A DNA stretch of 56,775 nt from Thermoproteota archaeon (GTDB taxonomy: Archaea; Korarchaeota; Korarchaeia; Korarchaeales; Korarchaeaceae), in NCBI GenBank assembly GCA_026986575.1, contig JALSOH010000001.1:1-56775 (forward strand), read 5' to 3'. A program made the position numbers and the translations under genes. Position 1 is the first letter of the stretch; every line of letters starts with the position of its first letter. Under the pieces are notes generated by a model. That model made no database searches. It had not been told where the DNA came from and saw only the letters and a list, made by a program, of their open reading frames with translations. This document shows positions 27,851-47,569 of this stretch, piece after piece.

Positions 27851-28104
27851 GTGTACCACCACGTATACTAATTGGCAATATAAAAAGGATGCTGAGAATG
27901 GAGGAGAGGGATGCGCGACGCCTCTTACCGCGCGCTCAGAAGGCCTGAGAAATATAAACAATGTTTCCAGCGAAAACCATTAGTTGGAAACAAGCTTTGG
28001 CAACGATCATCATGCAGGATATCCTTAAAGATTATCTGGAAACACTTAAGGTCTGGAGAAAGGCTAATTGGCAAGTGAAGCTATATTTGACATGAGTGTA
28101 AAGC

Positions 28105-28299
28105 TTGTCCAAGGTTGTTAGGGTAAGATATGAGAAAGGCGTATTGCGGCCTCTTGATGATGTTGAGTTTAGAGAAGGTGAGGAGCTGGATGTCATAATT
28201 GTTCGAAAGAATTTCAGTGGGTTCCGAGAGGAGGCAGGCAGATACAAGTTCAGGGTCGACCGGGATGTTGTTGAGGAGTTCATAGAGGAGAGGAGGTAG
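28105..28299 (+). CDS. DUF104/AF2212-like antitoxin
   Basis: SKVVRVRYEKGVLRPLD..EGEE. Confidence 0.85.
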   Translation: MSKVVRVRYEKGVLRPLDDVEFREGEELDVIIVRKNFSGFREEAGRYKFRVDRDVVEEFIEERR

Positions 28300-28314
28300 A
28301 TATCTAGAGATATC

Positions 28315-28642
28315 CAGGCTGCCGTAGTAGATACTAGTGTCTTTGCAGACTACTACTTTATTTTATCCTGGAAAGCCGGAGGAGACACGAAAGAGCAAGA
28401 ACGATTCTAGACAAGCTGTCTGGTCTAGGCTTACCAGTCTCGCGCGCGTGGAAATAGCCCTTCTTACTGGTTGTAGGGCAGTTGACGCATACTACATAGC
28501 AACAACTAATCACGTCAATGCCGCCCTAATTACTAACGATAGAGTCATGAAATATAATGCCTTAAAAGTTGGAGTCGAGGCCTACTACTTGCTAAGCGAC
28601 AACGACTATAGCACACTCATAAGCAAACTAATAGTCAGTTAA
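28315..28642 (+). pseudogene. vapC: PIN toxin with internal deletion/frameshift
   Basis: AVVDTSVFADY in one frame; GCRAVDAYYIAT..LITNDR in another. Confidence 0.7.
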
Positions 28643-28691
28643 CCTAGCTAGAACGAATTCATCGTCATAATACGGATGCACTATCGATGGG

Positions 28692-28744
28692 TGGTGGGCC
28701 CGCCGGGATCCGGGGCCCGGGGCCTCCTGCTCCGAAGGCCGGCC
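28692..28744 (-). repeat. Degenerate 3' half of tRNA-Arg(TCG), candidate att-site remnant
   Basis: Minus strand GCCGGCCTTCGGAGCAGGAGGCCCCGGGCCCCGGATCCCGGCGGGCCCACCA: anticodon arm (TCG) through acceptor end with CCA, T-loop mutated, no 5' half. Confidence 0.75.
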
Positions 28745-28927
28745 CTTAAAAACTAATGTCCCACTGATTGATGAGAAACTGGGACAGATACGATAAGAAT
28801 TCATACTCGTTTTCTAGTATATGGGACGATGCCGTTAAGTATCGTTATCCTGACGCTATGTCAAGCATTTTTTGGGAAACAGTTATAGACGATTGTGTTC
28901 TTCCCGGTAATTGTGTAGCTTCTCTTC

Positions 28928-29428
28928 TTACGCCTCCCCTATATCACTTAATAGTTTGTTTACGAGGTCATCACTAATATAGAACCCTTTCTCTCTAAGC
29001 CTTTCTATAAACGGTTTGACTTCCCCTATTACGTCTTTTAGCTTCATAGCCTTTAAAACTCCTAGTGTGCCAATGATTTCTAAGCCTAGTCTTCTCGCCA
29101 CCTTCCTACCCTTGAGATCATCTATTATCAGTAAACTGTTTTTCTCCAAGGCCAGTGTTATAGCTTCAGCCTCGCCTTCATCAACGATAGTCTTTAACAC
29201 AAGTACAAGCCTACTATCACGAGGCTCCTCCACAGATAGAAAGCTTAAGCTCTGGAAATACTCTTTCTCTTTAACGCTAAGCTCCCGCATAACACTTGGT
29301 GGGACCGTTATTCTTTGGAATAAAAGATTGAGCTTCTCTAGCAACTCTGCATGTTTAAGAGCTATGAGGGGAGATGTGTTAGAGACTGCAATACTAGCTC
29401 CTCGCTTCTCTAGCAGTGTATTCGGCAA
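28928..29428 (-). CDS. DUF3368-type PIN-domain protein
   Basis: VSNTSPLI, VPPSV..EL, DEGEAEAI.LA, IDDLKGR..A..LG..IIGTLGVL. Confidence 0.9.
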   Translation of the reverse strand: MPNTLLEKRGASIAVSNTSPLIALKHAELLEKLNLLFQRITVPPSVMRELSVKEKEYFQSLSFLSVEEPRDSRLVLVLKTIVDEGEAEAITLALEKNSLLIIDDLKGRKVARRLGLEIIGTLGVLKAMKLKDVIGEVKPFIERLREKGFYISDDLVNKLLSDIGEA

Positions 29429-29657
29429 TCCTTAGCTCCTCCTTCAACTCCTCCTCATCCAGGTTAATTATGCTGACCTTCCTCCTCGAGAGCTCTTTCA
29501 TAAAATCCTCGACACAGAGCCCAGCAAGTTCGGCAGCCTGCATGAGAGTAAGCCTAGCCTCCCGGTAAAGCTCAACAGCTAAGAGAAGCCTAGCTTCATA
29601 CTCATCAATACTAATGTGCTCAGGTATATTTATCCTCAAAACCTTAGCGCCACTCAT
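29394..29657 (-). CDS. UPF0175 family HTH antitoxin
   Basis: LAVELYRE..LTL.QAAELAGL..EDF..EL. Confidence 0.85.
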   Translation of the reverse strand: MSGAKVLRINIPEHISIDEYEARLLLAVELYREARLTLMQAAELAGLCVEDFMKELSRRKVSIINLDEEELKEELRIAEYTAREARS

Positions 29658-29752
29658 TTCGCACTATCCCTTTAGCATACATAATTCATCAACCTTATTA
29701 AGGTGCTATAGCATAGCAAGGATAAATTTGCCAAGGATTTCGACGAAAGAGA

Positions 29753-30060
29753 ATGCTTAAGAAGACTAAACTGTATATACTATCAGATCATGGCTTAACC
29801 TTATACAAACAGAGATATCTACTTCCAGTTATCGACTCTTTATCGACTCTATTCTGTCAGCAGGTGGAGAAAGAGGAGCCTTCTATAAAGAACCAGATGT
29901 AGGTGAAGTCGAGAATGAGATTAGGAGAAGAGGGATTTCAGCAGATGTATTTAGAATAGAGGAGCTAGAATACTTCAAAGGTGAAATAAATCCTAGGTGT
30001 CATGAAGACTACGGGTATGTAATAGTGGTTGCGTCGCGCGCGATAATTCATGTCATGTAC
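29753..30060 (+). pseudogene. C-terminal fragment of an alkaline-phosphatase-superfamily gene broken by an 11-bp duplication
   Basis: LYILSDHG motif; TTATCGACTCT is duplicated in tandem at about 29829-29850; removing one copy restores AGGERGAFY..YGYVIVVA. Confidence 0.55.
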
Positions 30061-30232
30061 ATGAATTTACATCTGCTAACAGCGTTGTTTGGTATAATTA
30101 ATTGGTCCCTAATCAATAGGGAAGATTGCAATGCACCACACCAGAGACGTAACACAAAATCCTACGCTTCGAGCATTTCTAGAAGAAGTCCTTGAGATAT
30201 CAACTTTTTACTATTTAGGTTGCTATTAGGTG

Positions 30233-30284
30233 CGGCAAGCCCGCCGGGATTTGAACCCCGGGACCTCCGACTCCGAAGGCCCGG
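30233..30284 (-). repeat. Second degenerate 3' half of tRNA-Arg(TCG), candidate att-site remnant
   Basis: Minus strand CCGGGCCTTCGGAGTCGGAGGTCCCGGGGTTCAAATCCCGGCGGGCTTGCCG: intact GTTCAAATC T-loop, no D-arm or 5' half. Confidence 0.8.
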
Positions 30285-30437
30285 ATATAAAACCACGTTT
30301 CCAGAGGGAACCATCAAATGGAAATAACTTTCACAAGCAGTTATCACTCGCGAATATCATCATTGATAATCTGGAAACATCTCTCTGGGGATAAAGCTAA
30401 TTGCTCTGACATATAGAGTATAAGTGGTGACTAGAGC

Positions 30438-30662
30438 TTGTCCAAGGTTATTAGAGCCAGGTATGAGAGAGGTGTGCTGAAGCCGCTGGAACCATTGGAG
30501 CTCATGGAGGGTGAGGAAGTACAGGTTATCTTGAAGACTAGTGATGACTCTCTTACCAAGAGGCTCTATGGTGTAGCAAAGAAGAGGAGGCCGGGCCTTA
30601 CAAGGAGCGAGTTCCTTGAGGTCATTGAGGAGATAGAAGATGAAGATATTCGCGGACTCTAG
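30438..30662 (+). CDS. DUF104/AF2212-like antitoxin
   Basis: SKVIRARYERGVLKPLEPL.L.EGEEV. Confidence 0.85.
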   Translation: MSKVIRARYERGVLKPLEPLELMEGEEVQVILKTSDDSLTKRLYGVAKKRRPGLTRSEFLEVIEEIEDEDIRGL

Positions 30663-31074
30663 CGTCATCCTCGCGTTCCTGGCTGGTCAAGACGAGAGGG
30701 CTTATAGTGTTATTGAAGAGATAGAAAACCATAGGGCCACAGGCTTCATCAACGCTATAGTAGTAGATGAGGTTATCCATGGGTACCTAAGACTCGCATC
30801 AGGGCTCAGCTCAAAACGAATAAGACAACTATTAACGAAAAGGGACAAGAAACTCATCGAACTAATAAGCAATGACGTGGAGCCAGTTCTGGGGCTATTC
30901 ATAACCCTATCAATCGCATTATTCCCTGACGAAATAATCAGTACCATTGAAGAATATGGGCTCATGCCAGCCGACTCCGTAATAGCATTAACATGCAAAC
31001 ACCATGGAATAAACATCATAGCGACATTCGATGAAGACTTTAAGCGTGTTCCATGGCTCAAAGTAGTCCCTTAG
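30640..31074 (+). CDS. vapC: VapC PIN-domain toxin
   Basis: FADSSVI..DE..YGLMPADSVIALTC..IATFDEDFKRV. Confidence 0.9.
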   Translation: MKIFADSSVILAFLAGQDERAYSVIEEIENHRATGFINAIVVDEVIHGYLRLASGLSSKRIRQLLTKRDKKLIELISNDVEPVLGLFITLSIALFPDEIISTIEEYGLMPADSVIALTCKHHGINIIATFDEDFKRVPWLKVVP

Positions 31075-31444
31075 ACCAACTTTAGCTAATTTGGCTCCGA
31101 GCTAGAATTCTTTAGAGTAGACCTTGGATAGCCGGGAGGGCTTACGGGATGAGGTTGTGCAATAAACGCTTTCTGTATGTCATAGTAGCGTGGTTTTGGA
31201 TGTTTATTGGTTTTGGCGTCACTAGCTTTTCATTAGCTCGTATCAAAGGTGTAGAGTTCACCTTTGAGCATATTATCAACCTTATAGTAGTGACCCCTAC
31301 TTAGCAGTTTACGGTGAGATAGCTAGTGTGGGGGGATTACCTCTTCTCATCTCTATCTTATGTGGAGACGGTTTCACAATGTATGGTTTTAGGAGAAAAG
31401 GAATGCGCGTGTGTGAAGCTATATATGACATGAGGTGCGGGAGA

Positions 31445-31645
31445 TTGTCCAAGATTGTTAGAGTGAGATATGAAAAGGGGGGTCTTAAGCCTTTAGAGAA
31501 GCTAGACCTTCCTGAGGGCGAAGTATTGATTGTGAAGTTTATTAGAGCACGACTAGCGGAGAAAGTGTTTGGCTCCATAAAAGTTGATAAGGAGGCTCTC
31601 GAGCACATTCTGAGGGAAGCTGAAGATGAGTTCGGTGTTTATTGA
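31445..31645 (+). CDS. DUF104/AF2212-like antitoxin
   Basis: TTG start, SKIVRVRYEKGGLKPLEKLDLPEGE. Confidence 0.8.
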   Translation: MSKIVRVRYEKGGLKPLEKLDLPEGEVLIVKFIRARLAEKVFGSIKVDKEALEHILREAEDEFGVY

Positions 31646-31875
31646 CAGTAATGTAGTGATTAGATATTTTGCTGGCGATAGAGTGGCTAAGAGTCTCTTA
31701 GAACCGCGCGATTATATGAGAAGGATATAGCTAGCTTAGGCCAGGCCCGTAGGATAGCAAGATTATCCGAATAGGACTTTCTAGATCTACTAGCAAGGGA
31801 AGGAATACCAATACATTACGGCGAGGAAGAGTTGAGGGAGGATCTGAAGTTCGCCAAGAGGCTTGCAGGGAAATG
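31626..31875 (+). pseudogene. Truncated PIN 5' end fused to a UPF0175 remnant
   Basis: MSSVFIDSNVVIRYFAGD.. abuts RLYEKDIASLGQARRIA.LSE*DFLDLLAREGIPIHYGEEELRED. Confidence 0.65.
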
Positions 31876-32241
31876 CGCACGCGGGAAAAATTCTTCAGAC
31901 TTCTCTATAAGCACTATTTCAATGAAATTCGCAAAATGAAAATAGATTTTACCAAAAGAGGTGATATCTGTGGAAAATGATAATAAAAAACGTGGTGCTG
32001 ACTACATCATCTTGAACAAATTACCTGTTACCATTATACATTTACGCATAGTCCCAACACAGTATATCTACCGAGTAAAGGATCTAAATGTGCTTGGAAT
32101 AATGAGAGGTATCCTATCAGCGTGTTTATTATATTCAATCGCGCGATCTATGAAGGTGACTCAGTACGTGTGGAGAAATAACTCCATCGATAGATTCCTT
32201 CTCAATAGCCTTTGCAATAACCTTGAAACGTTAAGAGTGAC

Positions 32242-32949
32242 TTAAATCTTGAAACCCTTCGCTACCTGAGTAAATAGAATTAATAAGAGATTGGGCATCA
32301 CTGTAGCGACTAAGATCTTAAGATTGCTTACTTCACGCTTACTGATTAACCTGAATCCAAGAGCGTACAGAGAGACAGCTAGTACTTCAGTCCCCTTTCC
32401 GACTACTGGGAGCATATCTTGGGGGAGAGGGATCGAATACATTATGAGGTAAAGTATGTAGACCATGTACGCAATGGAGTTTACTTGGAAAAGGTTGCTG
32501 AGGCTCAAGTCCACCAGTAGGGAAAGAGCAATTAAGTATTCTACGAAGGTGATTAGAACGAGCCCCCCGAACTGGCTCAGAAAGCTCGTTAATATGAGTA
32601 GAATTGTAACCAGCTGTGGTGGAGGAGTAGCTGTCGAATGCGATAGAAGATGCGATTCGAAGTAAGAGACAGCACTGAGGGAGACTAAAGTGCTTACTGC
32701 GGCAGCTAGGGCGAGGGCGGATGTAGTCCCATAGCTTAGTCTCATTATCCTGCCATTCGAAGGTCTCTCATATTTTATTACTACACACACCAAACTTGCT
32801 GCAAGTCCTACGATCAGAGATGATATCTCTGCAATCCCGGGATCTATGAGAGCACCTGAGTAAAGCAGGAGGAAGTAAGTAGTGATCGAAATAGCGAGGA
32901 GCACGAGATATGGAATATAGTCTTGAGGCTTACCTAAGATGAGGAGCAA
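32242..32949 (-). CDS. Polytopic membrane protein (possibly Yip1-like), last gene of the candidate bacteriocin operon
   Basis: About 7 hydrophobic segments; overlaps the SpoIIM gene by 16 nt. Confidence 0.65.
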   Translation of the reverse strand: MLLILGKPQDYIPYLVLLAISITTYFLLLYSGALIDPGIAEISSLIVGLAASLVCVVIKYERPSNGRIMRLSYGTTSALALAAAVSTLVSLSAVSYFESHLLSHSTATPPPQLVTILLILTSFLSQFGGLVLITFVEYLIALSLLVDLSLSNLFQVNSIAYMVYILYLIMYSIPLPQDMLPVVGKGTEVLAVSLYALGFRLISKREVSNLKILVATVMPNLLLILFTQVAKGFKI

Positions 32950-33503
32950 CCTAGTACACCTGGTGTGATGAACGTTTCAATGCAGCACGCTAATAGAAGC
33001 AGTGAATAGGCCATAATTAGGAGTCTAACCGATAATTCTATCTCCCAGTGATCTGTTCCGCTTCCGTAATGCTTCTCTCCACCTCTACTTATTAGCCTCT
33101 TGAGGAGGACTCCACTCATCCTGCGGGATATATCTGAAGACAAGATGAACGAAGAGATCTCCGGTATGCCGTGGGGGACAACACCCGCCAACAATCTACT
33201 GAGTCCAGATCCTGCTATGGTATATCCATGGTTCACCCCTTGGGCGAACAAGATTAGATAGGATAGGAAACCGTAGGATATAATACCTGAAATAAATATT
33301 GCCATGAAGATGGAGGTATTGGCCTCTAGAATCATAATAGCATTGGCTTTCCTACAGTAGAGGTGGGATGTTGGTCCTTTATGCGTGGCGATCCCAAAAA
33401 TCAGACCTAAGATATAAAAGAGAGCGGGGAGGATGGTCCATTTTGAAACGAGCTTCTCTTGTAAATCTTTGCGAGTGTTTCCTAAGTTTAGTACTCTAAG
33501 CAT
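32934..33503 (-). CDS. SpoIIM / DUF95 family membrane protein
   Basis: I..AN..I, QG..G, hallmark PHGIPEI, C-terminal LLLACCIETFITP. Confidence 0.85.
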   Translation of the reverse strand: MLRVLNLGNTRKDLQEKLVSKWTILPALFYILGLIFGIATHKGPTSHLYCRKANAIMILEANTSIFMAIFISGIISYGFLSYLILFAQGVNHGYTIAGSGLSRLLAGVVPHGIPEISSFILSSDISRRMSGVLLKRLISRGGEKHYGSGTDHWEIELSVRLLIMAYSLLLLACCIETFITPGVLGCSSS

Positions 33504-33714
33504 ATCCCTTCACCTTGCCAGATCGGGCTTTCCTTTTACTTATCAGAAGCGTTACACCTGAGTAGGAGAATCCAACGATCAACCAGACAGCTGTGAGGAG
33601 GATGTCTCTATTTAAGGCGTAGACTACCGCGAGAATAAAGATCAGGGAAGGGAACAGTACGAACAGCAGAAGCTTCTTTATTGCACTAGAAAAATTCGAG
33701 AGGTGTATGGTCAT
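33496..33714 (-). CDS. Small 2-TM protein with cationic tail (candidate immunity protein)
   Basis: MTIHLSNFSSAIKKLLLFVLF..LLISKRKARSGKVKGYA; alternative ATG at 33732 overlaps the precursor stop; 3' end overlaps the SpoIIM start. Confidence 0.65.
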   Translation of the reverse strand: MTIHLSNFSSAIKKLLLFVLFPSLIFILAVVYALNRDILLTAVWLIVGFSYSGVTLLISKRKARSGKVKGYA

Positions 33715-33728
33715 GGCCCCCCTAAAGT

Positions 33729-33980
33729 TCATAGTGAGGCGGTCACCCAGATCGCAGTCCATGCAAGCATCTGCCAGCCGCACCAAGAGGTCATTGCCAG
33801 CCCCCAGTACCACTCTAGATAGTGCGCAGCCAATCCTCCTACAGCAGCTCCTGCTCCAAGAGATGCCACCGCGTTTCTACTGTAATAATACGTCACCTTT
33901 GATGGACTCTCAGCGAGCAGAACTGGAGAGATCATTATTAGAACGGCCAGAAAGAGGGGAGATATACGAAATCTTCTCAT
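33729..33980 (-). CDS. Candidate bacteriocin/archaeocin precursor peptide (83 aa)
   Basis: GGTGAGG RBS before ATG 33980; signal-like MRRFRISPLFLAVLIMISPVLLA, then ASLGAGAAVGGLAA and a 6-Trp hydrophobic C-terminus; first gene of the SpoIIM operon. Confidence 0.65.
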   Translation of the reverse strand: MRRFRISPLFLAVLIMISPVLLAESPSKVTYYYSRNAVASLGAGAAVGGLAAHYLEWYWGLAMTSWCGWQMLAWTAIWVTASL

Positions 33981-34015
33981 ATACCTCACCTCTATTAAGG
34001 TTAATAATGCTACGC

Positions 34016-34031
34016 ATATATTTAAATTTTT
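34016..34031 (-). promoter_or_regulatory. BRE/TATA promoter of the candidate bacteriocin operon
   Basis: Minus strand AAAAATTTAAATATAT about 40 nt upstream of ATG 33980. Confidence 0.6.
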
Positions 34032-34127
34032 GTTCCATGCACCAGGTATGAAAGGATTATCCTATCCCATTAAGTCCTCTGAACATTACAGGAAACGATT
34101 AATACCTAGAAAGGGCCTCCAATCAAG

Positions 34128-34499
34128 ATGGTTAAAAGGGATGAGTATCTATATCTATTGAGAAGATCTGAAGAATTTCATGAGATAGTTCTGATGAAAA
34201 CAGACAAAGGTTTTCTAGGATCAGCTGTTTTGAACTTGGAATAATCATTACAGCTATTCTTAAAGGCGAAATTACCGGAAAGTGGAGTAGACTATCCTCG
34301 AACCCATAGTGTGCGTAGACTCCTAGAGCTCCTAGCAGAGATCATGAGCGCACCCCTCTCACAAAGGATCAATCGACTAATAGGTGATTACTCGCTGGAA
34401 TTAGCGTTGCTGGAAGATACTTACATCACCTTCAGATATGTACCTAAGGAATTCCGTAAAGATGAGGTCCTAAAGCTAAAGAGAGCCGTGGTGGCATAG
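34128..34499 (+). pseudogene. HEPN-domain gene with internal stop, 3' end truncated
   Basis: MVKRDEY..AVLNLE*SLQLFLKAKL..DYPRTHSVRRLL..LEDTYITFRY. Confidence 0.75.
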
Positions 34500-34810
34500 T
34501 GGGAATCGAAGAAAGAGAGCCCGAATTCCTGCCTGAGCCTGACACTGGTTATGACAATTTCAGGAGTGAGTGAGATGAAACCTACGTTTGGGAGCGAGAG
34601 GAGAGCCGACATCACTTTGAGAAGTTCCTCCTCCAGCTTTTGAGATTTGTATATGAACTCCAACTCCAACAGGGTCACTCCAGAGATATCTAGCTTCAAA
34701 TTACCTTTCTTCAGTTTGTGGAATATCCTCTCGGCGACTTGGTGGTTCTCGTCGTTCTCATTCATATGGGCGAAGATCACGTTATTCTCTATGAGAACCA
34801 CGATTCTCAA
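34421..34810 (-). pseudogene. vapC: Copy of vapC (26326..26742), C-terminally truncated and running into HEPN antisense sequence
   Basis: Near-identical to the first copy up to FFDSHYATTAL; lacks IISFD. Confidence 0.8.
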
Positions 34811-35030
34811 CCTCCCGCTCTGCTAAAATCTCGGCCTCTCTCCTCAGCTCCTTGAAGGACCTTTTTGTGGTGAAGGATCCCTCGAGCACTTTGAAAGGAT
34901 CTTCCGGAATAGGAACTACTTCTATCCTATCGCCTAAATTTATTAGGAGCACCTTCATTCCTCTGAGGATCCTCCTCATTCGCTTCGGAATGGTGATCCT
35001 GCCCTTCTCATCGAGTTCCACTATATTCAC
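34782..35030 (-). CDS. vapB: AbrB/MazE-type antitoxin, copy of 26742..26972
   Basis: GTG start, NIVELDEKGRITIPKRMRRILRG. Confidence 0.8.
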   Translation of the reverse strand: MNIVELDEKGRITIPKRMRRILRGMKVLLINLGDRIEVVPIPEDPFKVLEGSFTTKRSFKELRREAEILAEREVENRGSHRE

Positions 35031-35214
35031 AGTGGAAAGGAGAGGAGAAGTGGGAGCATAAAAATGTAGACTGGAATTGGCGGGCCGGGCCTCGATGATA
35101 AGGCACAGGCGCTCGCTCTGAACCTGAAATGGGCCCATGAGCTCGATGCTCGCGCGAGTTTAACTGGTCTCTCTAGTGGTTCGCATCGCACTTAACAGCT
35201 GGGTCAGAGATTAA

Positions 35215-35485
35215 GTAACTCGAAACTAGATAGTCAAACTGCTTCTCTCCTCACGAACTCGGCCAGATCCACCGTCTCAAATCCACCCATCCTTCTTCCC
35301 GCACTCTTCGAATTTCTCCTCAACATTCATGGCATTACGGATCTCAGGGAGAATACATTTGGTCCCTCTGTATAGAGGGACTTTCAGAACTTTCATTTCT
35401 ACTCTTGGCCAGCCCTAGCCTTACCATTTTCTCGGCTATGGCTGGAATCCTGTGGCTCACCCTCACACTGACAACCTCGACATGT
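35215..35485 (-). pseudogene. Decayed copy of antitoxin 27587..27850 and the first codons of its PIN partner
   Basis: Shares ctcacgaactcggccagatccacc, ctactcttggccagccctagcct and accattttctcggctatggc with the first copy; several indels. Confidence 0.8.
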
Positions 35486-35552
35486 GCGCTATCTCCCAAA
35501 TTAATACTAAAATTTAGCCGTGATAGGATGTAACGAGAATGGAGATGAAGGC

Positions 35553-35867
35553 ATGCTGAAGGAAATTCTATTTTACTTTCTTTTCATAATACCGTTAGTC
35601 GTGTACTTCTCAGGGATATACAGGGCCAAAACTCAAAGGATGATGCTATCGATAGCAGCCTTTGTACTCGTTTCTACCTTCATCATACTGTTCGAAGAAA
35701 TCCCGGCACCCGCGCGATGGATACTACTTAGCGTGATCTTACTGACGCTTCTCTATCACCTAATCGTCCCGATACTGTTGAAAACGGGGGTGATAAAAGG
35801 GATGGATAGGTCGACTCCGCCCGCGCGGGAGATGTCTCCGGGGTCCTCAAATATACAGACCGGTTGA
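35553..35867 (+). CDS. Small 3-TM hypothetical membrane protein
   Basis: Hydrophobic ORF. Confidence 0.55.
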   Translation: MLKEILFYFLFIIPLVVYFSGIYRAKTQRMMLSIAAFVLVSTFIILFEEIPAPARWILLSVILLTLLYHLIVPILLKTGVIKGMDRSTPPAREMSPGSSNIQTG

Positions 35868-35952
35868 GATCAGTGAAGATCGGATAAACGCTCAGCACTC
35901 AGAGGACCACTGATGATATAAAGAATGGGAGAAACCAGCCTTGGGGTGTCTC

Positions 35953-45650: not shown

Positions 45651-46607
45651 CTACACCTTGTGACAGGCCACCCAGTGACCCGATCCCACCTCCATCAGTG
45701 CGGGCTCCTCCTCAGCGCACCTCTCATCGGCCAGCGGGCAGCGTGGGTGGAACCTGCATCCAGAAGGCGGGTTCCTGGGATCCGGGGGCTCTCCAGGTAA
45801 TATCTCATCAGGAGCCTTCGCATTTGGAGATGGCTCGAGGACGCTGGCTAAAAGACCCTTGGTGTAGGGATGCATGGGGTTGCCGAATATCTCCTCAACG
45901 GAGGCCATCTCCACGATCTTGCCCGCATACATTACGGCCACCCTGTGGCTGATGTTCCTCACTACTGCTAGGTCGTGGCTTATGAATAGGTAGGCAATAC
46001 CCCTCTCTTCCTGGAGCGATTTCAATAGCTTGAGTATCTGGGCTTGCACGCTCACATCCAGCGCGGAGGTCGGTTCATCCAGCACAATGAACTTGGGCTC
46101 CGGGGCTAGGGCCCTAGCTATGGCTATCCTCTGCCTCTGACCCCCGGAGAACTCATGCGGATACCTGTATAAATGGTCCCCACTGAGTCCCACTCTCTCT
46201 AGGAGGCGCCTAACCATCTCATCTCTTTCCCTCCTGCTCGACACCATGCCGTGTATCTGAAGAGGTCTCCCCACTATATCAGCGATCCTCATCCTTGGAT
46301 TCATGCTGGACATGGGATCTTGATATACAATCTGCATCTCTTTTCTCAATGGTCTGATATCCTTAACAGCCGTCACATCCCTACCATCGAACAGTATGCG
46401 GCCGGATGTAGGTTCGATAAGCCTGAGCACAGTTTTTCCGACCGTAGTCTTGCCGCTGCCAGATTCCCCAACCAAGCCCAGTGTCTCTCCTGCATTCACG
46501 GAAAACGAGATGCCATCAACTGCTCTAACGACCTCCTTCTTCCTCAAGAAGCCCCCGGAGATGTAATGCTTAACCAGATCCTCCACGACGAGAAGCACGA
46601 TCACCAC
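45651..46607 (-). CDS. Oligopeptide/dipeptide ABC transporter ATP-binding protein (DppF/OppF-like)
   Basis: [37 protein letters not shown]. Confidence 0.93.
45659..45774. repeat. 116-bp exact direct repeat, copy 1 (copy 2 at 46627-46742)
   Basis: tgtgacaggccacccagtgacc...catccagaaggcgggttc is identical at the 3' ends of both ATPase genes. Confidence 0.95.
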
Positions 46608-47569
46608 CTCCCTGACCCAGAGACCCTGTGACAGGCCACCCAGTGACCCGATCCCACCTCCATCAGTGCGGGCTCCTCCTCAGCGCACCTCTCATCGGCC
46701 AGCGGGCAGCGTGGGTGGAACCTGCATCCAGAAGGCGGGTTCACTAGGCTGGGGACGGATCCCGGTATTGGCTCCACTTCACCGCCGCTCACTTTGGGGA
46801 CAGCTCTAAGCAGGCCCTGCGTGTAGGGATGCATGGGGTTAGAGAAGATCTCTTCCTTGCTTGCCATCTCCACGATCTTGCCCGCATACATTACGGCCAC
46901 CCTGTCCCCGACAGCGGCGGCAACGCCCAAGTTGTGCGTGATGAAGATGAAGGATGCCTCCACCTGACTCTTGAGCTCCGCTATGAGCCTGAGTATCTGG
47001 GCTTGCACACTTACATCCAGCGCGGAGGTCGGTTCATCCATTATGACAAGATCGGGCTCCAACATGAGGGAGGATGCGATTAGAACCCTCTGCCTCATTC
47101 CACCGCTCAGCTCGTGGGGATAGCTGCTAAGGACCTTTTCAGGTCCCGGGACCTTCACCTTACCCAACCACTCCCTGGCCAAGGAGAGAGCATCCTTCTC
47201 GGTTCCCCCCCTATGAGTTAAGTAGATGTCTCTCATGAACTTCCCGATCGTAAACACGGGATTCAGGGCGGTCATAGGCTCTTGGAATACTATGGTTATC
47301 CTGTCCCCCCTGAGCCTTCTGAATTCCTCCTCCCTAAGGGAAGTGAGCTCTTTATTTAAGAACCGGATACTCCCATCAACTCGCGCTGTCTTCGGTAATA
47401 GGCCTATTATGGACAGGGCTAACGTTGATTTTCCGCTCCCTGATTCGCCTACGATGGCCAGAGTCTCCCTCCTACCCAGTGAGAGAGTTACACTGTCGAC
47501 TGCCTTGACGGTTCCTTCATCCGTGTGGTAGCTAACCCTCAGGTCATGGACCTCTAAAAGCATAGTCAC
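46601..47569 (-). CDS. Oligopeptide/dipeptide ABC transporter ATP-binding protein (DppD/OppD-like)
   Basis: [35 protein letters not shown]. Confidence 0.93.
   Translation of the reverse strand: MTMLLEVHDLRVSYHTDEGTVKAVDSVTLSLGRRETLAIVGESGSGKSTLALSIIGLLPKTARVDGSIRFLNKELTSLREEEFRRLRGDRITIVFQEPMTALNPVFTIGKFMRDIYLTHRGGTEKDALSLAREWLGKVKVPGPEKVLSSYPHELSGGMRQRVLIASSLMLEPDLVIMDEPTSALDVSVQAQILRLIAELKSQVEASFIFITHNLGVAAAVGDRVAVMYAGKIVEMASKEEIFSNPMHPYTQGLLRAVPKVSGGEVEPIPGSVPSLVNPPSGCRFHPRCPLADERCAEEEPALMEVGSGHWVACHRVSGSGRW

Follow-up and report, generated by a model that had tools for sequence, protein, structure and literature searches.

A 56,775-nt stretch of contig JALSOH010000001.1 (hereafter the window, whose positions serve as our coordinates) from a hydrothermal-vent archaeon, represented by a metagenome-assembled genome (MAG) titled Thermoproteota and designated G000 here, carries a cassette of four small open reading frames (ORF1 to ORF4) on its minus strand at 32242-33980. 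A first-pass annotation of this DNA had proposed that the four genes form an archaeal circular-bacteriocin operon. The best explanation of our findings is that the cassette is accessory and horizontally variable, and that it is built around a stand-alone paralog of the SpoIIM/DUF95 family. Reasoning by analogy with bacteria, we also lean, tentatively, toward the view that it produces, processes and tolerates a leader-bearing hydrophobic peptide of its own and works like a bacteriocin system. The earlier proposal gained partial support from the synteny of a precursor-like gene with SpoIIM, from ATP-binding cassette (ABC) and M48 peptidase genes in sister cassettes and from a match in a Bacillus thuringiensis bacteriocin cluster; against it, no peptide could be assigned to a bacteriocin family, and the cassette has neither an ATPase nor a large membrane protein.

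Layout and conservation of the cassette

The four genes proved to be as tightly coupled as the first-pass annotation had described. ORF1 (33729-33980), which opens with an ATG, encodes 83 amino acids (aa), ORF2 (33496-33714) encodes 72 aa, ORF3 (32934-33503) 189 aa, and ORF4 (32242-32949), which starts at a TTG, 235 aa. ORF2 and ORF3 share 8 nt across the stop of the one and the start of the other (ATGCTTAG), the overlap of ORF3 with ORF4 is 16 nt, and a 78-aa version of ORF2 beginning at an ATG at 33732 overlaps the ORF1 stop as ATGA. The single promoter and ribosome-binding site that had been placed ahead of the genes were also recovered, with both kinds of motif called by eye: a TFB recognition element (BRE)/TATA-like element (ACAAAAATTTAAATATAT) lies at about 34016-34033 on the minus strand, approximately 40 nt 5′ of the ORF1 ATG, and a Shine-Dalgarno-like GAGGTGA lies at 33987-33993 on the same strand, 6 nt 5′ of the ORF1 start. 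Both are kept in a second genome of the genus, G019, and AGGTG(A)-type motifs are also found 5′ of ORF3 and ORF4. A scan of the locus for bacterial promoters and terminators was set aside, the host being an archaeon.

ORF1 encodes a pre-peptide with a basic N-terminus and a 17-residue hydrophobic stretch, giving a putative leader of about residues 1-23, followed by a core of 60 aa that is rich in Gly, Ala and Trp, contains two predicted hydrophobic helices and extends to the stop codon. Gly and Ala account for 23% of the residues, six residues are Trp, and the core is near-neutral. With its putative cleavage site after residue 23, ORF1 has the form looked for beside SpoIIM in circular-bacteriocin clusters, a small ORF with a leader and a hydrophobic core of 58–70 aa running to the stop. 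Compared with its copy in G019, ORF1 has a ratio of non-synonymous to synonymous substitution rates (dN/dS) of 0.11; the three non-synonymous changes all fall within the leader, and the 60-aa core is 100% identical at the protein level despite eight synonymous changes. A third genome, G003, encodes an 81-aa homolog (BLASTP E = 7e-6, aligned from end to end at 26% identity) with the same plan of basic hydrophobic leader, a junction motif ExPS...YYYxR that is kept between leader and core in G000 and G003, and a hydrophobic core that ends at the stop codon. The coding conservation that had been asked of this ORF was therefore present. Among 43 genomes of the phylum, which formed our genome panel, the ORF1 family occurred in three (G000, G019 and G003), always with the cassette.

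In agreement with the first-pass view that the precursor could not be assigned to a known family, ORF1 matched no family in Pfam or NCBIfam at E-values up to 1, including Bacteriocin_IId, BacteriocIIc_cy and TIGR03651, and a profile of the ORF1 family gave only chance matches to Protein Data Bank (PDB) sequences. A search of the Atlas likewise returned only chance-level scores (0.75–0.82), with Gly-zipper families among the nearest clusters. We considered ORF1 as a type IV pilin with a class III signal peptide and rejected this by eye, there being no G, A or S before the hydrophobic stretch; we also rejected it as a lipoprotein, as it has no lipobox cysteine.

ORF3 is a member of SpoIIM (PF01944), as the first-pass annotation had expected, with an E-value of 1.3e-17 and a score of 64.6 bits against a cut-off of 26.9, aligned over profile positions 3-163 of 163. 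It carries the motif PHGIPE, and scores only 24.1 bits against the NCBIfam SpoIIM equivalog, for which the cut-off is 100.2. Between G000 and G019 its dN/dS is 0.23 and a 3-nt indel keeps the frame, and a homolog is present in G003 (E = 3e-8). In pairwise comparisons, ORF3 scored 44 bits with the DUF95 protein of B. thuringiensis described below, 37–42 with the G003 proteins of its own type, 35 with a housekeeping SpoIIM of another phylum and 32 with an RDD fusion; as sequence scores these all lie in the twilight zone and are non-discriminating.

The fourth gene had been described as encoding a protein of about seven transmembrane (TM) segments that might belong to Yip1. That ORF4 is a multi-TM protein held, with eight hydrophobic segments by a lenient hydropathy count and five by a strict one, and 6–8 taken as its likely number; the Yip1 assignment found no counterpart in Pfam, where none of seven ORF4-family members matched Yip1 (PF04893) at E-values up to 10. 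ORF4 itself matched no family in Pfam at E-values up to 1 and none in NCBIfam, and when searched with HMMER against 1.84 billion representatives, it returned just two relatives, a 104-aa fragment with 48% identity and a 233-aa protein with 34% identity (E = 8.5e-4), the latter encoded on contig C57 of G003. Scans of metagenome and genome contigs with an ORF4 alignment found one and two loci, respectively, and a word-based search of 5.8 billion proteins recovered only their own 90% clusters for ORF1, ORF3 and ORF4. The nearest Atlas clusters to ORF4 are named Yip1 (scores 0.85–0.86, 178–182 shared features, structural TM-score 0.50/0.61). This likeness to Yip1 is a lead only, without confirmation from Pfam or from hhalign, which found no match between ORF4 and the Yip1-like 182-aa protein of B. 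thuringiensis. As with ORF1, the ORF4 family was confined to G000, G019 and G003, always with the cassette, and its dN/dS against G019 is 0.13.

ORF2 has two to three hydrophobic segments (two TM segments), an isoelectric point (pI) of 10.5, nine Lys and Arg residues against one Asp or Glu, and a strongly cationic tail (SKRKARSGKVKGYA). Its last 61 aa are conserved in G019 with a dN/dS of 0.28; the N-terminal extension is not conserved, and the ATG used as the start in G019 is an ATA in G000. In G003, two ORFs of 102 and 111 aa occupy the position of ORF2 and encode TM proteins with basic tails, although their similarity to it is not significant (E = 0.35). By its size, charge, number of TM segments and position, ORF2 may be an immunity-like or accessory protein; it has no Pfam match and resembles no known protein in sequence.

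Taken together, dN/dS values of 0.11–0.28 in all four genes indicate purifying selection and coding beyond chance. The cassette lies within a 2.3-kb block of G019 that matches window positions 32175-34494 at 90.5% identity, and on contig C57 of G003 the same gene order is found (ORF1, two small basic-tailed TM proteins, SpoIIM and ORF4) at approximately 26–34% protein identity. An unrelated MAG carries a SpoIIM-ORF4 pair in which both genes are frameshifted and the upstream part is lost at a contig end, and two decayed copies of the cassette are present in G003. DNA reads from three runs gave identical cassette contigs in a second study, with no informative variants within the genes.

Related cassettes in the genus

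We surveyed PF01944 in 21 genomes of the genus and found one core RDD-SpoIIM fusion per genome, 460–500 aa in length and in some cases split by contig ends (for the G000 fusion, at G000:C4:793699-797181 [L001], RDD E = 4.7e-14). Stand-alone SpoIIM genes occurred at 12 loci in 4 of the 21 genomes (four in G000, five in G003, two in G020 and one in G019). The first-pass annotation had suggested asking whether a small peptide gene is syntenic with SpoIIM homologs, and this is the case: 10 of these 12 loci are preceded by an ORF of 81–103 aa that begins with a hydrophobic leader and continues as a Gly/Ala-rich core up to its stop codon. The remaining two are a locus cut by a contig end (L051) and a decayed copy of the present cassette that has lost ORF1 (L052).

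There are at least five types of peptide-plus-SpoIIM cassette in the genus. The present cassette, type A, is found in G000, G019 and G003. In type B (G000, G020 and G003), the peptide and SpoIIM are accompanied by a TM protein of 197 aa, by an ABC ATPase (PF00005, E = 1.6e-30) and by a permease. Type C (the same three genomes) consists of an 81-aa peptide, an M48 peptidase (E = 3e-22), SpoIIM and a 199-aa TM protein. Type D, seen in G000, has a peptide, a 136-aa TM protein and SpoIIM, and type E, seen in G003, has three small TM or leader proteins, SpoIIM and an M48 peptidase.

Judged by sequence, type B is the closest archaeal look-alike of a full circular-bacteriocin cluster that we found. 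Its peptide is kept from a predicted junction, S|M-x-V-W-x-G-T-Y-V-R-T, to the last residue, while the leader varies, and the core (70–76 aa) is cationic (pI 9.7–10.9), partly amphipathic and not TM-like over its first 45 residues. This peptide family is present in 3 of the 43 genomes and only with its own cassette. In G000, type B lies at G000:C4:149462-151794 (L004/L059), and its pre-peptide is 103 aa long, of which 70 aa form the cationic core. Type C is 15 kb away on the same contig, at G000:C4:162820-166284 (L005), and type D, at G000:C6:404525-407911 (L002), encodes a His-rich peptide of 94 aa. On contig C57 of G003 (L023, L048, L051), a type A cassette stands immediately behind a type C cassette on the same strand, and the ORF2-like gene of this type A copy is duplicated.

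Cassettes in another archaeal phylum

The MAG with the frameshifted type A pair belongs to another archaeal phylum, for which PF01944 was present in 65 of 81 sampled genomes. Among the 27 SpoIIM rows from 20 loci of this phylum, which we picked by hand from genomes with multiple or tandem copies and which are not a random sample, 9 (8 genes in 4 genomes) follow a gene for a Gly/Ala-rich peptide of 88–108 aa and one for a TM protein of 90–166 aa, and genome G052 has a cassette of peptide, M48 peptidase and SpoIIM. The other 18 rows are without such a peptide, and at least ten of them are tandem SpoIIM genes behind a multi-TM protein of 282–295 aa, an arrangement that is the housekeeping pair of the literature.

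We aligned ten of the peptides from this phylum (45 pairs) and found a mean pairwise identity of 54.5% in the leader, which reads …W-N/D-E-E-V-x-K-W-L-A-V-G-M-V-L-A-M-V-G-L-A-V-M-P, compared with 22.3% in the core. A conserved leader with a variable core is the pattern expected of leader-core precursors, and would fit a conserved first TM helix as well. The peptides belong to no Pfam family, and hidden Markov models of the leader and of the whole peptide gave no match to the peptides of the genus (0–5 bits). The loci concerned are L095, L096, L097, L102, L103, L105 and L064, in genomes G117, G125, G066, G077 and G052; in some genomes of the phylum, two or three cassettes cluster in the space of a few kb, and L096 has an extra peptide gene downstream.

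Comparison with bacterial circular-bacteriocin clusters

SpoIIM/DUF95 is treated as class-defining for circular bacteriocins in the accessible text of four sources; the gene set given there comprises, besides the precursor and DUF95, a large membrane protein, a protein that binds ATP and, for immunity, a small cationic protein with two TM segments (PMC13289728, PMC13463998, PMC7132975, PMC8659200). One of them, in the parts available, requires a transporter or ABC ATPase along with the precursor and SpoIIM before a cluster is counted, and records M48 peptidases in a few bacterial cyclized-bacteriocin clusters (PMC8659200). When we searched ORF3 by tblastn against 72,556 plasmids, the only match was a B. 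thuringiensis SpoIIM (E = 6e-3; 60% of ORF3 aligned at 28.6% identity), which, by annotation and Pfam, lies in a cluster of the circularin A/uberolysin type on plasmid p81952 (NZ_CP015254.1). The precursor of this cluster is 107 aa long and matches Bacteriocin_IId below the cut-off (E = 0.0015). Also encoded in the cluster are the DUF95 protein, two membrane proteins (one of 568 aa and one of 182 aa, the latter annotated as hypothetical), an ABC ATPase and, last, a cationic 2-TM protein of 58 aa. The gene for the 182-aa protein (L053, 5455-6003) comes next after that for DUF95, and its product matches Yip1 over profile positions 32-167 of 173, again below the cut-off (E = 0.0066), which hints that a DUF95/Yip1-like pair may be common to the bacterial clusters and the archaeal cassettes.

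The two systems are alike in several respects. In both, a small precursor gene comes first and encodes a hydrophobic leader and a Gly/Ala-rich core of approximately 60–70 aa that runs to the stop; the gene immediately behind that for DUF95/SpoIIM encodes a multi-TM protein; and each includes a small cationic protein with two TM segments (58 aa and pI 9.7 in B. thuringiensis, 72 aa and pI 10.5 here). The B. thuringiensis precursor, too, has a long hydrophobic leader, so that the signal-like leader of ORF1 is not evidence against a bacteriocin-type precursor. They differ in that the archaeal cassette lacks the ABC ATPase and the 568-aa membrane protein, that ORF1 is unlike Bacteriocin_IId or any other family and has a near-neutral, Trp-rich core, and that the small cationic protein is encoded second here but last in B. 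thuringiensis. The host here is, moreover, an archaeon.

A quick tree of SpoIIM proteins placed types A, C, D and E, the cassettes of the other phylum and the B. thuringiensis DUF95 protein on one side of a split with a support of 87 (SH-aLRT, an approximate likelihood-ratio test). A more careful tree lost that split and kept a grouping with the cassettes of the other phylum for types D and E alone (80/99, not starred), and we take no support from the phylogeny.

The cassette lies in a variable island

The AT-richer island among toxin-antitoxin modules that the first-pass annotation had noticed is evident in base composition and in Pfam matches. The GC content is 45.8% in the cassette and 44.3% in the island (27853-35914), compared with 52.9% in the genome, and a value as low as that of the island is reached in just 0.4% of the genome's 8-kb windows. 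The neighbors of the cassette within it are PIN, MraZ/AbrB-like, UPF0175, AF2212-like and HEPN genes. Empty sites, in which the thyX and NUDIX sides are joined with gaps of 139–206 bp, are present in four relatives (G011:C71, G020:C59, G007:C33 and G010:C101), which marks the island as a variable insertion site. Relative to G019, G000 has an extra 4.2 kb of toxin-antitoxin genes between a shared PIN gene and the cassette.

Several further features of the locus were recorded. On the plus strand at 34128-34499, within the block shared with G019, a HEPN gene has an in-frame TAA at 34242-34244 in G000, where G019 has CAA and an open frame (the portion beyond the TAA matches Pfam at E = 5.6e-10), so that the G000 gene is probably a fresh pseudogene. 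At approximately 30237-30285 on the minus strand, also in the island, there is a fragment resembling the 3′ half of a tRNA, with a T-arm (GGTTCAAATCC) and an acceptor, at which ARAGORN called no tRNA; the same 40 bases recur two to four times per genome in the genus at 85–93% identity, and the fragment may be the attachment-site remnant of an integrated element. One of the decayed type A copies in G003 (G003:C38, L025 1-300) adjoins a sequence that translates like tRNA read-through, which suggests that this copy may have been inserted beside a tRNA. The window had been said to contain no ABC ATPase; this was incorrect, as two adjacent ABC ATPase ORFs of 342 and 365 aa, both with ABC_tran matches, lie 12 kb from the cassette at 46065-47497 on the minus strand and would by their size be an importer pair.

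Discussion

The cassette is best seen as a minimal variant of the DUF95-centered small-peptide cassettes that occupy variable islands in archaea, a kind already described by Makarova et al. In the accessible text of their 2014 and 2015 papers, paralogs of arCOG01996 (COG1300/DUF95) are frequent in archaeal “dark matter” islands, where they form cassettes of three to four genes; the other members are a Yip1-like protein and rapidly evolving small proteins of three TM segments, and SalXY-type ABC transporters are in some cases close by (PMC4158269, PMC5898192). By that description, three to four genes, a DUF95 paralog, diverged small membrane proteins, variable islands and multiple copies are common to both, and the Yip1-like protein and occasional antimicrobial-peptide-type ABC neighbors may be compared with our ORF4 lead and with the sister cassettes. 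The published cassettes are from Archaeoglobi, Methanococci and Thermococci, which are Euryarchaeota, whereas ours is in a Thermoproteota MAG. The same text interprets them as membrane-associated defense or membrane-remodeling systems, and the complex it envisages is not a leader-core peptide system (PMC4158269, PMC5898192). Our search of open-access literature and bioRxiv, which covered the papers of Makarova et al. but not their supplements, found no paper that interprets archaeal DUF95 cassettes as circular-bacteriocin-like.

Read as a bacteriocin-like system, the cassette would work as follows. A single transcript, presumably initiated from the BRE/TATA-like element at approximately 34.03 kb, would yield four products whose translation is coupled through the overlaps and Shine-Dalgarno-like motifs that we observed. 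The 83-aa pre-peptide would be inserted into or carried across the membrane by its basic hydrophobic leader through the general Sec/YidC route, which would explain the absence of a dedicated ABC exporter. By analogy with bacteria, where the mechanism is itself unsettled, ORF3 and ORF4 might then remove the leader at or after ExPS...YYYxR, free a core of 47–60 aa and possibly ligate its ends. ORF2, to judge from its position, size and charge, would protect the producer, and the product would act on the membranes of competitor cells. Head-to-tail cyclization of the ORF1 product in particular we consider possible but unlikely.

A number of observations weigh against this bacteriocin-like reading. 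Searches of Pfam, NCBIfam and PDB sequences with the peptides of all cassette types found no bacteriocin family, nor did the partner proteins yield a bacteriocin or Yip1 match, and the likeness of ORF2 to immunity proteins is one of size, charge and position only. The cassette has no peptidase and no membrane protein of approximately 500–570 aa, its largest product being 235 aa, and the nearest ABC_tran match is 12 kb away, with none beside the G019 and G003 copies; in the accessible part of a bacterial knock-out study, the ATPase and the large membrane protein were both needed for production (PMC13463998). A signal-peptidase-type cut would leave ORF1 with a hydrophilic N-terminus (ESPSK), and its G003 homolog has no clear small residue at −1 and no canonical cleavage site, from which it follows that the leader may be an uncleaved membrane anchor and ORF1 a 3-TM membrane protein. 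Within the genus, peptide leaders are not more conserved than cores, hhalign found no homology when the TM partners in types A, B and C were compared, and the loci that gave the contrast of leader and core in the other phylum were, as noted, hand-picked. The careful tree does not resolve ORF3, the B. thuringiensis DUF95 protein, types B and C, the RDD fusion and the housekeeping forms from one another, and flags the joining of ORF3 with the B. thuringiensis protein as a meeting of long branches. Finally, archaeal SpoIIM is common in housekeeping contexts according to the available text of one source (PMC5898192), with which its presence in 65 of 81 genomes of the other phylum may be compared.

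The strongest alternative is that the cassette encodes a resident membrane complex of the arCOG01996 type, in which an uncleaved 3-TM ORF1 and ORF2 are subunits alongside DUF95 and a Yip1-like protein, no peptide is released, and the role is one in membrane-associated defense, exclusion, membrane remodeling or vesicle formation. We regard this as possible, though somewhat less likely than the bacteriocin-like reading. The cassettes of DUF95, Yip1-like and small 3-TM proteins in the accessible text of Makarova et al. (PMC4158269, PMC5898192) are its closest precedent, and it accords with the three hydrophobic stretches of ORF1, the Atlas lead from ORF4 to Yip1, the lack of an exporter or protease in the cassette, the G003 leader without a canonical cleavage site, and an island rich in toxin-antitoxin and defense-type genes. 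It leaves unexplained, however, the M48 peptidases and ABC exporter of the sister cassettes, the conserved leader and variable core in another phylum, and the 70–76-aa cationic core of type B, whose first 45 residues are not TM-like. Nor does a defense role find an echo in PADLOC, which none of the four cassette proteins matched at E-values up to 1, or in viral contigs, where a scan with a SpoIIM alignment found no relative.

The setting of the cassette raises a second alternative, in which ORF1 is a pore-forming membrane toxin that is restrained by the co-expressed membrane proteins, the whole being an addiction or abortive-infection module that stabilizes the island or kills infected cells. 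At least five PIN/HEPN-type toxin-antitoxin modules surround the cassette in its variable island, ORF1 is small and hydrophobic with a Gly-zipper-like stretch (for which the Atlas Gly-zipper scores are at chance level), and decayed copies of the cassette exist. Four genes that include SpoIIM are nevertheless not a known toxin-antitoxin architecture, ORF1 bears an export-type leader, the absence of a PADLOC match counts here as well, and the toxin-antitoxin neighbors differ between G000 and G019, which share the cassette block alone; we judge such a module distinctly improbable.

A housekeeping envelope function, linked to lipoprotein biogenesis or cell division as for arCOG01994 and the 7-TM protein AliA, is the least credible of the explanations and hardly to be entertained: the pairing of SpoIIM with a neighboring 7-TM protein is on record for archaea in the accessible text of two sources (PMC5898192, PMC12462473), and 282–295-aa proteins do precede tandem SpoIIM genes in the other phylum, but the cassette is in only 3 of 43 genomes with empty sites in four relatives, its copies decay, an RDD-SpoIIM fusion is already present as a core gene of the genus, the orphan ORF4 has no similarity to those 7-TM proteins, and ORF1 lacks a lipobox cysteine. 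The partner of housekeeping arCOG01994 is arCOG02177, the 7-TM protein now called AliA, as the available text has it (PMC12462473). Such SpoIIM proteins (arCOG01994 and the RDD fusion) have the Pfam domain and a PHGxxE-type motif in common with ORF3, but they are single genes of near-universal occurrence, and neither the tandem pairs nor L001 showed a small peptide beside them, while ORF3 is accessory and peptide-linked. The Pfam family is shared, too, with Bacillus subtilis SpoIIM of the DMP engulfment complex, which, in the accessible text of one source, scaffolds the hydrolases SpoIID and SpoIIP, enzymes that archaea lack along with murein (PMC5898192).

We therefore return to the bacteriocin-like reading and to what it would mean. 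Archaea make ribosomal antimicrobial peptides and proteins, the archaeocins, which include halocins and sulfolobicins. We know of no archaeocin that involves a DUF95 protein or head-to-tail cyclization, and, to our knowledge, no ribosomal cyclic or DUF95-matured peptide has come from archaea. By analogy with the bacterial systems, the ORF1 product could be the first archaeal antimicrobial peptide to be cyclized head to tail or matured by DUF95, from a system with a Sec-type leader and a minimal pair of DUF95 and a Yip1-like protein in place of an ATPase and large membrane protein, although we give this outcome a rather low likelihood.

Were it so, the DUF95/Yip1-like pair would be an ancient catalytic core of circular-peptide maturation that is common to bacteria and archaea, and the archaeal “dark matter” DUF95 cassettes would constitute a large unrecognized reservoir of leader-core peptide systems. 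The role of DUF95 has been left open in bacteria, where secretion, leader cleavage or both have been proposed in the accessible text of two studies (PMC13463998, PMC7132975), and a minimal four-gene cassette would offer a simple system in which to learn it. The bacteriocin-like reading would also give a testable function to archaeal “dark matter” cassettes that have been uncharacterized since 2014, and the peptides, if active, would represent heat-stable agents of vent archaea that act on membranes.

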